Part shown: in pieces, positions 37,797 to 41,259 of the stretch | Layout of the letters: every line of letters begins with the position of its first letter | Numbering within the stretch: the first letter of the stretch is position 1 | Assembly: GCA_016786665.1 (NCBI GenBank) | Contig: JAEUVZ010000032.1 | Location: forward strand, 1-64,000 | Origin: Flavipsychrobacter sp. | Lineage (GTDB): Bacteria; Bacteroidota; Bacteroidia; Chitinophagales; Chitinophagaceae | Direction of reading: 5' to 3' | DNA: 64,000 bases | Translations under genes and position numbers: made by a program | The notes under the pieces: generated by a model | What the model was told of the DNA's origin: nothing | Seen by the model: the letters and a program-made list of their open reading frames with translations, nothing else | Database searches by the model: none

Positions 37797-37833
37797 GCAA
37801 CTGTTCTCATGGAGCGCAGCGGAATAATCTCAC
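37797..37833. repeat. Left copy of a 37-bp imperfect inverted repeat bounding the tRNA-Lys-adjacent islet
   Basis: gcaactgttctcatggagcgcagcggaataatctcac. The reverse complement matches 40956-40992 at ~32/37 positions. Confidence 0.6.
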
Positions 37834-38037
37834 GCCTCGTTCTTGCTCATGAAAGCTTACCTGAAAGTCTGCCTCTATTGAGGAGATATGCCGTAAAATA
37901 AAGATCAGCACCCGCCTGGAACTGGCCATATTTGCTATAAGAGTTGGCATTGCACCATATAATGAAATGAATGCATCGCTCGCGAGATAAAATCAGCCTC
38001 ACTGTATTTCGCAGTAAGGCTGATTACTTTATTTTTT

Positions 38038-38090
38038 AGCCGATCTGGAGATTGGCCACCACTACGACGTAGAGAAACTCTACGCCGAAC
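38038..38090 (+). repeat. Solo 3'-end fragment of the mosaic hairpin repeat (S3 end)
   Basis: gccgatctggagattggccaccactacgacgtagagaaactctacgccgaa matches the 3' ends of repeat copies A and B. Confidence 0.6.
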
Positions 38091-38159
38091 TATCAATAAT
38101 GGTCAGAAATTACGCTGACCGTGGTTGTTTTTACCATAGAATGCGGAGTGAGGGTCAGA

Positions 38160-38684
38160 CTATCCTAAATGTGATTCCTCAACATATTTATCTATAAATC
38201 TTGGCCAGTCATTGTGAGGAATTAATTGATTAATTTCTAAACAGACTTTTTGAATAATTGAAAGTGACACTTTAGCAAACCGAACGTCCTGCCTTACTCC
38301 ATTCAATAACTTATCCCATACAAAAAGATAATTCGGAGCTTCATATACTGCACTTATTAGCCATGGGTCAAAATTTTCTCCTAAAAACAAATTGTGTCTG
38401 TCTTCATGAATCTGTTCTTTTGTGAACTTTTTCTTCGAAGTCCCCTCATCATTTAGTCTATAAAAGATAGCGCTTGGCGACAGTTCTCTTAAATTATTAT
38501 TTTCAAACAACAAAAAGTCCTTTGCTAATTTGTTTAAGGTTTTAATAAAAGGAGCTATCCTTTCAATACTGTCAAAGATTCCAATTTCTTCGCCATCTAT
38601 ATACAGGCAGGTTTTACCCATTAAAGGTTGGGACTTTATTATGACAATTTTAGCAGCAAATATGTCACTATTTCCATTTATCAT
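38160..38684 (-). CDS. Hypothetical cytoplasmic protein, AT-rich cassette ORF (immunity-protein-like)
   Basis: 174 aa with no TM or signal peptide. GC is far below the genome background. It is flanked by the mosaic repeat. Confidence 0.5.
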   Translation of the reverse strand: MINGNSDIFAAKIVIIKSQPLMGKTCLYIDGEEIGIFDSIERIAPFIKTLNKLAKDFLLFENNNLRELSPSAIFYRLNDEGTSKKKFTKEQIHEDRHNLFLGENFDPWLISAVYEAPNYLFVWDKLLNGVRQDVRFAKVSLSIIQKVCLEINQLIPHNDWPRFIDKYVEESHLG

Positions 38685-38781
38685 AGCGTTGTTTTTCTTT
38701 ATCGAAACCTGTCTCTAATTTCTGCTGGGACTTTTCGAATTGGTGGTACCATTTCGTTCCATCTATTTCTGTTTTCGCCTG

Positions 38782-39211
38782 TCGAACCACCCCGCTTGGC
38801 GTAGTCTCTGACTACGTCGAAACCGGCTGTCAATCTCCTGATTGACGAAATTCTTTACTCATACCTATCACACAATTTAAAATGAATTTCACAGGCGCGG
38901 GAGCTTGCAGAGCGCTCCCGTGTCTGCATGGGTAAACCGGACTTTGCCCGGCTGCACAACCACCGATACTGTCGTTCTTTGGCGGAAGCGTCCCGCTTGC
39001 GGAAATGAAGTTAATTAATAATCCGTGGTTTCCTGGGATTGCTACGCGGGTCGGAGACTCGTTTTACTGGGTGGGCACAGGAGCCTCGCTCAACACAGTT
39101 GTTCGGGCAGGCGCTGCGCTAACTCCTGCGCCAGTGGGCGCAATGAAGCTGATAGTGTTTGTATTACTCGCCGATCTGGAGATCGGCCACCATAGCGACG
39201 TAGAGGAACTC
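38782..39211 (+). repeat. Mosaic hairpin-rich repeat, copy A (modules S1+S2+S3, complete with TIR-like ends)
   Basis: It begins t.ggcgtagTCtctGActacgtcg and ends gcgacgtagAGgaaCTctacgcc.a. The two ends are an inverted pair with covarying stem bases. Inside is a string of 6-8-bp-stem hairpins (gtcaatc/gattgac, cgggag/ctcccg, ccggac/gtccgg, tgcgcc/ggcgca, gccgatct/agatcggc). Confidence 0.7.
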
Positions 39212-39247
39212 TACGCCAAACTAGGGGTTGAGATAATGCGCATATGG

Positions 39248-39652
39248 TTATTTTGTGTAATTCAGTATCCAACTTAAACTATCTGGGAATTGATAATTGA
39301 ATGCTTCAAAGTCTCTTTTTATAATAAGAATTAAATTATTTGAGGGTCTTTGTGGATGATAAACTACCGGAAAATATCTGTTAAGAAAATATTCATCACA
39401 GTCAGCAGGGCTTAGGCTAGAAGTATTGATTGATGTAGACCCTTTATATTCTTGATTGCTTAATGTAAAGGTGTAATCAATCGAGATACTTCCACCACGC
39501 CCACGTCCCCCATAAGTACATTTTGTTATTCGTCCTCCATTAATTATATTATTATTCTCTCGCAACTCTTTAGATAGCTTAATGCCCCAAAAATAAAATG
39601 GTGTTATCACAACCACGGCGAACAAAGTTATCATTAATACTTTCCTTTTCAT
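39248..39652 (-). CDS. Small membrane-anchored hypothetical protein (N-terminal TM helix; ..VYHPQRPSNN.. C-terminal motif, DUF3592-like); paralog of 40263..40655
   Basis: 134 aa, AT-rich; MKRKVLMITLFAVVVITPFYFWGI forms a TM anchor. It shares G+I.K...SI.I.Y.F.L and VY.P..P.NN.ILI....Y/FN...PDSL.W motifs with the next cassette ORF. Confidence 0.55.
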   Translation of the reverse strand: MKRKVLMITLFAVVVITPFYFWGIKLSKELRENNNIINGGRITKCTYGGRGRGGSISIDYTFTLSNQEYKGSTSINTSSLSPADCDEYFLNRYFPVVYHPQRPSNNLILIIKRDFEAFNYQFPDSLSWILNYTK

Positions 39653-39716
39653 AAGTGTATCTATTTTGCTTTTCCAGTTGTATCATCAATCTTGTTCGTA
39701 ACAGTTTGAATAATTA

Positions 39717-40050
39717 CCTCACTGGCGCGGGAGTTAGCAAAGCGCTCCCGTGTCTATATGGGTAAACCGGACTTTGTCCGGCTGCACAACCACCGATAAC
39801 GGCGTTCGCTAGCCGAAGCGTCCCGCTTTCGGAAATGAAGTTAATTAATAATCCGTGGTTTCCTGGGATTGCTGCGCGGGTCGGAGACCCGTTTTGCTGG
39901 GTGGGCACAGGAGCCTCGCTCAACGCAGTTGTTCGGGCAGGCGCTGCGCTAACTCCTGCGCCAGTGGGCGCAATGAAGCTGATAGTGTTTGTATTACTCG
40001 CCGATCTGGAGATCGGCCACCGGTGCGACGTAGAGAAACTCTACGCCGAG
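39717..40050 (+). repeat. Mosaic hairpin-rich repeat, copy B (modules S2+S3)
   Basis: ~90% identical to the S2+S3 part of copy A. It ends with the same TIR-like hairpin gcgacgtagagaaactctacgccgag. Confidence 0.7.
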
Positions 40051-40262
40051 TGAGGGAAGCAGCAGAATGATTTCTTAGATTGACGAACCCCGTTGCTCAT
40101 ACCCGCAGTTTTTATTCTATAACAATCTACTATTAAAATAAAACATCCTTACTGAATAAACAGTAAGGACGTTTGTTGAAAGACATTCTCTTTCTAGCTC
40201 AAGATTATTCGAACTAGGAACATTACTTATGTCAGAATAAATTGAAGTTTTGATGCCCAAGA

Positions 40263-40655
40263 TTATTGAGTAAAGTATTGTTCAACCCAATACAAACTAT
40301 CTGGTTTTTTTAAATTATAATATTCATAATCCTCATCAGTTATTAGTATTTCGTTATTCTTAGGATTCTTCGGCTCATATACAATGGTAAAAAAATGCCC
40401 AACAAATTTATTTTCCCAATTAATAGATATATTAGTATAAGATTTAGTGTTTCTGTAAACTTTATCATTTAAATTAAATTGATATACAATAACGATTGAA
40501 GACCGCTTAGATACACTATTGAATTTGATTACCTTACCTGTGGAAAAAGACGGAGAATTTTTTATTTTACCTCGCTTCTCTTGTAGATGATATGTCCAAA
40601 AAACACCTGCAATTAGAAGACATAATATGACAATCCATGTTTCCCTTTTTTTCAT
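40263..40655 (-). CDS. Small membrane-anchored hypothetical protein (N-terminal TM helix; ..VYEPKNPKNN.. motif); paralog of 39248..39652
   Basis: 130 aa from ATG 40655 (MKKRETWIVILCLLIAGVFW). The longer track ORF runs into the repeat and is closed upstream by TAA. AT-rich. Confidence 0.55.
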   Translation of the reverse strand: MKKRETWIVILCLLIAGVFWTYHLQEKRGKIKNSPSFSTGKVIKFNSVSKRSSIVIVYQFNLNDKVYRNTKSYTNISINWENKFVGHFFTIVYEPKNPKNNEILITDEDYEYYNLKKPDSLYWVEQYFTQ

Positions 40656-40696
40656 GAGTTTTACTTTTTTGTAACAGTAGTAACGCTTTTTATGCC

Positions 40697-40945
40697 CCCG
40701 CTCGGCGTAGTCTCTGACTGCGTCGAAACCGGTTGTCAATCTCCAGATTGACGAAACTCTTTACTCATACCTATCACACAATTTAAAATGAATCTCACTG
40801 GCGCGGGAGTTAGCGATAGCGCTCCCGTGTCGGCATAGGTAAACCGGACCTTGTCCGGCTGCACAACCACCGATACTGTCGTTCTTTGGCGGAAGCGTCC
40901 CGCTTGCGGAAATGAAGTTAATTAATAATCCGTGGTTTCCTGGGA
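40697..40945 (+). repeat. Mosaic hairpin-rich repeat, copy C (modules S1+S2)
   Basis: ~90% identical to the S1+S2 part of copy A. It starts with the TIR-like hairpin ggcgtagtctctgactgcgtcg. Confidence 0.7.
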
Positions 40946-40955
40946 GAAGAAGCTG

Positions 40956-40992
40956 GTGAGGTTATTCCGCTGTGCTCCATGAGGAAAGTTGC
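40956..40992. repeat. Right copy of the 37-bp imperfect inverted repeat bounding the islet
   Basis: gtgaggttattccgctgtgctccatgaggaaagttgc is the reverse complement of 37797-37833, with ~5 mismatches. Confidence 0.6.
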
Positions 40993-41149
40993 ATCGCCAG
41001 ATCGAATTTGAGACAGGCGCCATAGACCAATGCACTGAATCGGTTCTATCAGTTTCACTGCCACCTCTCACGAGATTTCTCTCTTCACTACGTTGTACTC
41101 CATTTCGTTTGAAATGAGGGCGTAGATGGGGCTGGGTGGACTTGATGCA

Positions 41150-41183
41150 AAAAATAAGGATTGCACTTGTGCAATCCTTATTT
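41150..41183 (-). terminator. Rho-independent terminator immediately 3' of tRNA-Lys
   Basis: On the minus strand: aaggattgcac-aagt-gcaatcctt followed by attttttg. Confidence 0.8.
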
Positions 41184-41186
41184 GTG

Positions 41187-41259
41187 TGGTTCCGTAGGGA
41201 CTCGAACCCTAGACCCGCTGATTAAGAGTCAGCTGCTCTACCAACTGAGCTACGAAACC
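41187..41259 (-). tRNA. tRNA-Lys (anticodon CUU)
   Basis: Minus-strand sequence GGTTTCGTAGCTCAGTTGGTAGAGCAGCTGACTCTTAATCAGCGGGTCTAGGGTTCGAGTCCCTACGGAACCA folds as a canonical cloverleaf. The anticodon loop is CU-CUU-AA. CCA is not encoded. Confidence 0.9.

Follow-up and report, generated by a model that had tools for sequence, protein, structure and literature searches.

A tRNA-Lys-adjacent islet of low-GC genes punctuated by nested-palindrome repeats: a candidate orphan immunity array in a Flavipsychrobacter genome

Introduction

Orphan immunity arrays are an important defence of gut Bacteroidales, and the capture of their cassettes is unexplained even for the rAID-1 arrays. In these arrays, which occur in Bacteroidales, co-oriented short immunity genes with a low content of guanine and cytosine (GC) are combined with conserved intergenic motifs (Ross et al. 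2019, bioRxiv 10.1101/471110; PMC12247911). Their defining criteria are a 5′ XerD-family tyrosine recombinase with more than 44% identity to BF9343_RS08045 and at least two co-directional downstream genes with a GC content of at most 41%. Polyimmunity loci are characterized by small intergenic distances and probable polycistronic expression and are often found near XerC/D recombinases (Zhang et al. 2012; PMC3482391). In chromosomal integrons and in integron arrays without an integrase (CALINs), ORFan cassettes alternate with palindromic sites that are similar to each other and specific for a given array, and it is common for such an array to lack an integrase nearby (Cury et al. 2016; PMC4889954). 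These attC sites are organized as R″(..AAC)–L″–variable loop of 20–100 nt–L′–R′(GTT..) (PMC4889954). Here we analyse a stretch of 64,000 nt, referred to as the window, from a metagenome-assembled genome (MAG) of Flavipsychrobacter sp. (Chitinophagaceae, Bacteroidota; GenBank assembly GCA_016786665.1, contig JAEUVZ010000032.1, positions 1–64,000), in which an islet of three small open reading frames (ORFs), alternating with copies of a hairpin-rich repeat, lies next to a tRNA-Lys gene. This islet is close in its logic to rAID-1 and integron/CALIN arrays, but a member of neither.

Palindromic sequences of other kinds also enter into the comparison. The bacterial interspersed mosaic elements and repetitive extragenic palindromes (BIME/REP) of E. 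coli and the neisserial intergenic mosaic elements (NIME) and Correia elements of Neisseria are extragenic, hairpin-rich and modular, with copy numbers in the tens to hundreds across ordinary intergenic regions. The pdif modules of Acinetobacter plasmids feature 28-bp XerC/D sites in opposite orientation, with the recombinases encoded elsewhere.

Architecture of the islet and its repeat

The two constituents of the islet are opposed in base composition. The three ORFs, all on the minus strand and all encoding hypothetical proteins, have a GC content of 27.8–32.8% and a GC content at third codon positions (GC3) of 23–29%, whereas the repeat copies, with 51–57% GC, are host-like (the mean of the window is 50%, and the housekeeping genes around the islet have ~55% GC and 60–68% GC3). 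The islet ORFs are real genes of foreign composition. A first-pass annotation had described AT-rich ORFs for two paralogous membrane-anchored proteins and one cytoplasmic protein, which alternate with copies C, B and A of the repeat and are followed by a solo repeat end; all of this was borne out, with repeat copies of 250–434 nt and the protein without a membrane helix being that encoded by ORF1 (table 1).

On the ORF strand, the modules of the repeat follow each other in the order a(H1, H2)–b–c–d–e–f–c′–g–a′(H2′, H1′). The unit is a nested palindrome, i.e. its ends are mutually inverted (~54 nt, a/a′), and two 26-nt arms (c/c′) are inverted around a core of ~195 nt, such that either strand reads GTTAGC...GCTAAC, with 195 nt separating the arms. 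Along the array, the arms alternate as c, c′, c, c′. Copy A begins precisely at the sequence CCCAGG, which is the junction of modules e and f. Copies C and B are 93–94% identical over 300–329 nt, A and C 94% over 250 nt, and A and B 90% over 152 nt; the copies differ at 27 of 335 positions as well as in module content. This identity of 90–94% is found though the adjoining ORFs are only 27% identical or unrelated. Because similar, non-coding repeats of host GC content surround such ORFs, repeats and ORFs have separate histories. A coding function of the repeat was considered and rejected, as copies C and B differ at 12 positions inside its longest ORF, which are distributed 7/3/2 over the three codon positions and show no third-position bias.

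The unit folds far better than shuffled controls, with z-scores of −4.85 and −4.82 for the two strands as RNA and of −3.24 as DNA; since both strands fold equally well, this argues for a palindrome at the DNA level rather than for a strand-specific RNA. In line with the notation used above, the left end consists of the hairpins H1 (CGTAGAG...CTCTACG) and H2 (GCCGATCT..AGATCGGC) and the right end of H1′ (CGTAGTC...GACTACG) and H2′ (GTCAATCT..AGATTGAC). The two ends differ at four stem pairs, every one of which is compensated, and each end type is kept across the copies, so that the hairpins, or their dyad symmetry, seem to be maintained. Thus, the end hairpins look constrained, which fits a site that is recognized either in its hairpin form or through binding of a protein dimer. 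In Rfam 15 no family corresponds to the repeat (only tRNA matches were obtained, at E values up to 1 in 37–42 kb and at the gathering score in the whole window).

The entire array is bracketed by an imperfect inverted repeat, which the first-pass annotation had already noted and whose ends we find within a few bases of those given there. Its arms are 86% identical over 42 nt, with 37 nt at 89% identity (BLAST E ~2e-7). A 22-mer from this sequence has no further copy in the window with up to three mismatches (none being expected in shuffles). Likewise, the hairpin motif of the unit occurs three times as opposed to zero times in 100 shuffled sequences. Repeat and bracketing inverted repeat are not chance patterns. 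When the sequence was read at the ends of the repeat unit and of the 42-nt inverted repeat, no target-site duplication was visible. The possibility that the inverted repeat belongs to a dispersed family was rejected, as the only other similarity consists of a weak 15–39-nt match at 25.74–25.78 kb. This match (25739–25783) is located in a gene-free segment of ~900 nt (25330–26250), which has a direct repeat of its own (25672–25738 and 25804–25872, 88% identity over 67–69 nt).

A second locus with the same repeat

When the repeat modules were searched for across the rest of the window (BLAST, nhmmer profile), exactly one further locus was found, ~7 kb from the islet, where two pieces flank another low-GC ORFan, ORF4. 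These pieces are ~83% identical to the islet copies and have no modules a, b or g. The left one starts at the CCCAGG e/f junction, i.e. at the same point at which copy A is truncated, and, unlike the islet ORFs, ORF4 is in inverted orientation with respect to the modules on either side of it. The ORF4 protein, which is predicted to be helical with low confidence, has no match in Pfam, NCBIfam, PADLOC or the PDB sequences, nor in plasmids by tblastn.

In the 64 kb, all six pieces of the repeat adjoin small low-GC ORFans, and one of the six is a complete unit. The repeat is present neither at three other low-GC accessory loci nor in any other intergenic stretch of the window. Its association with the ORFans is therefore specific and not explained by AT-rich or intergenic DNA being preferred in general.

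Proteins encoded by the islet

A word-indexed homologue search with ORF1 returned the query protein only, and an exhaustive HMMER search yielded ten full-length relatives (124–184 aa) with 25–35% identity (E 1e-11 to 4e-4), which share a conserved GENFD motif. Six of the ten match the Pfam family Imm42 (PF15593) across nearly the entire profile. One of these, P0128, is the sole relative to pass the gathering cut-off of 27.2 bits, with a score of 29.1 bits; the other five score 16.8–26.7 bits over profile positions 1–160. Towards these Imm42-matching relatives, ORF1 has E values of 1e-11 to 1e-7. Imm42 comprises alpha+beta immunity proteins of polymorphic toxin systems, with Ntox18 as the partner toxins (PMC3482391). 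For ORF1 itself, Pfam returned no hit with an E value of up to 1, which places it below the Imm42 cut-off of 27.2 bits. We class ORF1 as a predicted immunity protein that is Imm42-like but divergent and would form a sister group, a link which is transitive, i.e. established via its relatives.

The genomic contexts of these relatives agree with a putative immunity role of the ORF1 family. Two of them (P0128 and P0125) start 4–7 nt downstream of a larger gene, which resembles a toxin–immunity bicistron and in the case of P0128 encodes a 370-aa protein; P0130 is part of a co-directional array of ten small unknown ORFs on a metagenomic contig, and P0141 is a singleton. No recognizable Pfam toxin domain is encoded by the genes upstream of the Imm42-like relatives. 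ORF1 has no partner gene upstream and therefore is an orphan. In the metagenomic array with P0130 (L012), three ORFs share at their 5′ ends a repeated segment of 137–212 nt with 83–95% identity (583–823, 2337–2577 and 5015–5151). Unlike the islet repeat, this segment is coding; it resembles a conserved head region of orphan toxin modules.

ORF2 and ORF3 align over their full length with 27% identity (E=4e-19), each with a single N-terminal hydrophobic helix and a beta-rich domain predicted by structure modelling with low confidence. They are real genes, i.e. genuine but distant membrane-anchored paralogues; counted from its ATG, ORF3 has the same length as the NCBI protein. With the alignment of both, a word-indexed search of 5.8 billion proteins retrieved only each other. 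The Pfam search proposed at the first pass for the islet ORFs revealed a weak DUF3592 similarity that is sub-threshold in both ORF2 (E=0.0018, under the Pfam cut-off) and ORF3. For ORF1–ORF4, there was no match in PADLOC and NCBIfam.

Genomic setting and further features of the window

To the left, the neighbours of the islet are a gene for what, from its sequence alone, we take to be 2-oxoglutarate dehydrogenase E1 and a glyoxalase-family gene (37257–37649); to the right follow tRNA-Lys and a DEAD-box helicase gene. Both the tRNA-Lys gene and its terminator are found, within a few bases, where the first-pass annotation had placed them, and a promoter motif scan detected a canonical Bacteroidota-type −7 box (TATATTTG) upstream of the tRNA at ~41283. 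The terminator is predicted to shield the islet from tRNA read-through. Table 1 lists the features of the islet and of the second locus.

Table 1. Coordinates of features in the islet and at the second locus (positions in the 64-kb window).
Feature	Position	Strand	Evidence
Bracketing inverted repeat, left arm, 42 nt	37792–37833		repeat search, BLAST
Stem-loop AATCAGCCT.ACTG/CAGTAAGGCTGATT with T-rich flanks, terminator-like end of array	37985–38030		sequence reading
Solo repeat end (module a only: H1, H2)	38039–38092	−	repeat search; nhmmer
ORF1 (JNL72_07940), 174 aa, 32.4% GC, no membrane helix	38160–38684	−	ORF list; composition; homologue searches
Repeat copy C, only complete unit, 434 nt	38790–39223	−	repeat search, BLAST
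Copy C, H1	39217–39196	−	
Copy C, H2	39188–39170	−	
Copy C, arm c	39136–39110	−	
Copy C, e/f junction	39040–39027	−	
Copy C, inner hairpins	39002–38981, 38952–38936	−	
Copy C, arm c′	38919–38890	−	
Copy C, H2′	38846–38829	−	
Copy C, H1′	38819–38798	−	
ORF2 (JNL72_07945), 134 aa, 32.8% GC, N-terminal membrane helix	39248–39652	−	ORF list; composition; structure model
Repeat copy B (a, b, c, d, e, f, c′; without g, a′)	39719–40053	−	repeat search, BLAST, nhmmer
Decayed remnant of g/a′ end, adjoins a end of copy B	40077–40103	−	repeat search
Terminator-like hairpin and T-run after ORF3	40141–40174	−	promoter/terminator scan
ORF3 (JNL72_07950), 130 aa from ATG, 27.8% GC, N-terminal membrane helix	40263–40655	−	ORF list; composition
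Repeat copy A, 3′ part only (f, c′, g, a′)	40696–40945	−	repeat search, BLAST
Bracketing inverted repeat, right arm, 42 nt, 10 nt from truncated end of copy A	40956–40997		repeat search, BLAST
tRNA terminator, stem AAGGATTGCA/TGCAATCCTT then T-run	41150–41185	−	sequence reading; inverted self-match 41152–41183
tRNA-Lys (anticodon CTT)	41186–41259	−	ARAGORN; Rfam RF00005, 71.4 bits
Second-locus piece, module f then long form of arm c′	47885–48050	+	BLAST; nhmmer E=4.5e-36
ORF4, 129 aa, 33.8% GC, ORFan	48150–48539	−	ORF list; composition
Second-locus piece, opposite flank of ORF4 (arm c, module e, short part of f)	48613–48710	+	BLAST; nhmmer; alignments

Beyond the window, proteins identical to those encoded by the helicase gene, ORF1 and the glyoxalase-family gene are not on record in other assemblies. 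Next to the nearest relatives of the helicase gene (L001–L003, 81–83% identity), the gene order after the helicase differs and there is no tRNA. The 22-nt core motif of the repeat has one hit each in GTDB (one genome per species) and in the JGI metagenomes, which we ascribe to chance because only the pattern itself matches; no real match was obtained with three repeat motifs in IMG/VR viral contigs or with the full unit in PLSDB plasmids.

Several other regions of the window are of interest in their own right. An accessory DUF3800 gene (32730–33521, minus strand) has 35–40% GC and no associated repeat. A low-GC gene pair at 44049–44759 encodes proteins of 154 and 81 aa, the second with a sub-threshold similarity to HicA_toxin (E=0.022), and may represent a HicAB-type toxin–antitoxin system; its flanks contain no copy of the islet repeat. 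Between this pair and a CYTH-domain gene, a segment of ~900 nt (43144–44048) has no convincing ORF, 41–48% GC, a strong positive GC skew of 0.2–0.3 and no Rfam family. A type I restriction–modification locus with specificity subunit and N6 methylase (53257–56260, 34–37% GC, also without the repeat) is located between genes for a DUF72 protein and phosphoglycerate kinase. Finally, the left end of the window (6–12775) encodes three consecutive, very large SprB-repeat proteins (593, 1519 and 2021 aa) with type IX secretion sorting domains.

Discussion

How can an alternation of foreign genes and host-like palindromes be explained? The reading we favour, with a probability of roughly 0.45, is that of a small polyimmunity-type cassette islet in which the repeats serve as a recombination scaffold. 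The logic of a cassette array is suggested by the foreign single-gene units, the near-identical repeats of host GC content, the truncated end units and the remnant, the shared breakpoint and the inverted lone cassette; the ORF1–Imm42 link argues for at least one cassette being in the interbacterial-immunity class. Low-GC single-gene cassettes would have been acquired independently, with ORF4 as a fourth, lone cassette ~7 kb away, and would have been set between copies of a lineage-specific, non-coding nested palindrome of host composition. Its modules (H1/H2, H2′/H1′ and c/c′) would provide the scaffold for insertion, loss, inversion and re-ordering of cassettes, driven either by a recombinase encoded elsewhere in the genome or by homologous recombination between copies, and the outcome would be that units lying between cassettes are complete and those at either end of the array truncated. 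The cassette proteins, in turn, would protect against toxins released by competitors. In this scheme, the use of the repeats as recombination sites, the trans-acting enzyme and the immunity function of ORF2, ORF3 and ORF4 are what we infer. A more far-reaching version, which we regard as distinctly unlikely, is an undescribed integron-like system of Chitinophagaceae, in which a trans-encoded recombinase would insert, excise and invert cassettes between c′/c arms, with the crossover near the CCCAGG e/f junction, thereby generating arrays at some sites and lone cassettes at others.

A number of findings speak against a cassette islet. As the first-pass annotation had noted for integrases and transposases, the window does not reveal a mobilizing enzyme, i.e. 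no recombinase, integrase or transposase domain was detected by Pfam among 45 ORFs, a set that takes in all non-overlapped ORFs of 150 aa or more. In the collections scanned, we found neither strains for comparison nor an empty site, an excision junction or another genome with the repeat. The immunity-family link concerns only one of the four ORFs and is transitive. There is no canonical Bacteroidota promoter in the repeats or leaders, and the intergenic distances of 560–610 nt contrast with the tight spacing described for polyimmunity loci. Moreover, the source is a MAG, and the assembly across three near-identical repeats appears to rest on this one MAG.

The main rival explanation, in our view unlikely, regards the repeats as a selfish, non-autonomous palindromic element belonging to the miniature inverted-repeat transposable element (MITE), REP/BIME or NIME type, which would have spread in this lineage and settled preferentially in AT-rich acquired DNA; the ORFs would be ordinary accessory genes, and their alternation with the repeats a by-product and not the mark of a cassette system. 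Terminal inverted repeats of ~54 nt and inner 26-nt arms in a unit of 434 nt with host-like GC content are what such an element would look like, both strands fold equally well, as those of a DNA palindrome do, and the second locus carries a diverged and rearranged form with no recombinase nearby; in addition, the modular rearrangements recall those of intergenic mosaic elements. However, no copy shows a visible target-site duplication, just one in six pieces is complete, intergenic DNA elsewhere in the window is free of copies, as are three other low-GC loci, each copy adjoins a small low-GC ORFan, and truncation recurs at one position. That the repeats are regulatory modules, i.e. invertible promoters or shared leader or trailer RNAs that act on transcription or mRNA stability, seems improbable. 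It is true that an arrangement of inverted repeat, ~330-nt core and inverted repeat is found upstream of each ORF, as in Bacteroides invertons, and that H1/H2 hairpins with a very stable fold occur 24–209 nt past each stop codon. Yet, the unit contains no TAnnTTTG promoter box on either strand, though the adjacent tRNA gene has one, which led us to reject a promoter-carrying inverton; there is no Rfam match, equal folding of the strands provides no strand-specific RNA signal, and truncated units as well as the inverted ORF4 are left unexplained.

Slightly more improbable still is a decayed integrative island that entered at tRNA-Lys and then lost its integrase, as had been considered in the first-pass annotation. 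The islet lies directly 3′ of tRNA-Lys, has a low GC content and is bracketed by a 42-nt repeat, but this repeat is inverted, 190 nt away from the tRNA and unrelated to it. No piece of tRNA-Lys of at least 10 nt recurs anywhere in 36–43 kb; therefore, there is no att-type signature, and an att duplication of the tRNA was rejected. The ORFs scanned include no integrase or remnant of one, and the repeat also flanks a cassette (ORF4) at a tRNA-free site. With neither integrase nor tRNA direct repeats, the islet is not a tRNA island. We consider it highly improbable that the locus is a CALIN with oversized attC sites. The small co-oriented ORFans and the palindromic sites do alternate, the sites being similar and homogeneous across the array, as in sedentary chromosomal integrons and CALINs (PMC4889954), and GTT/AAC triplets are present in the arms. 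However, the unit of 250–434 nt compares with variable terminal structures of 20–100 nt in attC (PMC4889954), confirming the first-pass remark that the repeat is too long for attC; on both strands, the arms read 5′-GGAGTTAGC...GCTAACTCC-3′, which is the reverse of R″(AAC)...R′(GTT); and no IntI was found in the 64 kb. Hardly credible, finally, is an artefact of MAG assembly by repeat-induced mis-joins. Three repeats at 90–94% identity within 3 kb of a MAG would invite such errors, but the copies differ in sequence and modules as described above, every junction is unique and the flanking genes are intact.

For studying cassette acquisition, the islet has useful traits, i.e. long, structured and readily recognizable repeat modules, one breakpoint that recurs, a lone cassette in inverted orientation and no recombinase found in cis. 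If recombination at the repeats is true, these would constitute a tractable sequence signature, and the defence strategy would reach outside the gut as well. Should the repeats turn out to be selfish palindromes, we would be dealing with an ordinary accessory islet.

Comparison with known systems

The first-pass annotation had likened the islet to orphan immunity arrays and integrons. As an orphan immunity or cassette array, the locus is supported by the ORF1–Imm42 link, the bicistron and array contexts of the ORF1 relatives, the opposed GC contents and the second locus, whereas an assignment to rAID-1 or to integrons in the strict sense fails. With rAID-1 arrays, the islet shares co-oriented short genes (about 100–300 codons) with a GC content far below that of the host, which for the three minus-strand ORFs is well within the rAID-1 limit, predicted orphan immunity content and a bacterial host among the Bacteroidota. 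Conserved intergenic repeats are present in the islet, and a conserved repetitive motif, published as a figure, is described for rAID-1. In terms of immunity homology, ORF1 reaches Imm42 via its relatives only, ORF2 and ORF3 have weak DUF3592 similarity and ORF4 has none. In contrast to rAID-1, there is no XerD-like recombinase among the scanned window ORFs, for which reason the islet is not a rAID-1 array; furthermore, it comprises three genes, belongs to Chitinophagaceae rather than Bacteroidales, and its repeats are long nested palindromes that also occur at a second locus.

Tandem small genes on the same strand, which are unrelated or distant paralogues and have no toxin genes between them, with one of them Imm42-like, are reminiscent of polyimmunity loci. 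Unlike in the latter, the islet genes are widely spaced, with structured repeats and at least two terminator-like hairpins between them. With integrons and CALINs, the islet has in common that ORFans alternate with mutually similar palindromic sites. Yet, a classical integron is not supported, as no IntI was found in the window, the site is 3–5 times too long and the arm polarity is opposite to attC; also, the cassette boundaries are not at GTT.

As in BIME, NIME and MITE elements, modules of the islet repeat can be missing, re-ordered or inverted, and there are terminal inverted repeats, again a likeness by description. Of the hallmarks of a MITE, i.e. terminal inverted repeats, target-site duplications and many dispersed complete copies, the unit has the terminal repeats; no duplication was seen at its ends, only one copy is complete, and just two loci within 64 kb carry the repeat. 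The difference from such elements lies in the association of every single piece with low-GC ORFans and in target-site duplications not being seen. With pdif modules, the islet shares discrete gene modules between oppositely oriented sites, represented here by the alternating arms c and c′, whereas nothing dif-like, i.e. 11-nt arms with a 6–8-nt spacer, is evident. What we describe here, then, is a candidate orphan immunity array in an environmental member of the Chitinophagaceae that, with no recombinase found in cis, is punctuated by unusually long nested-palindrome repeats.

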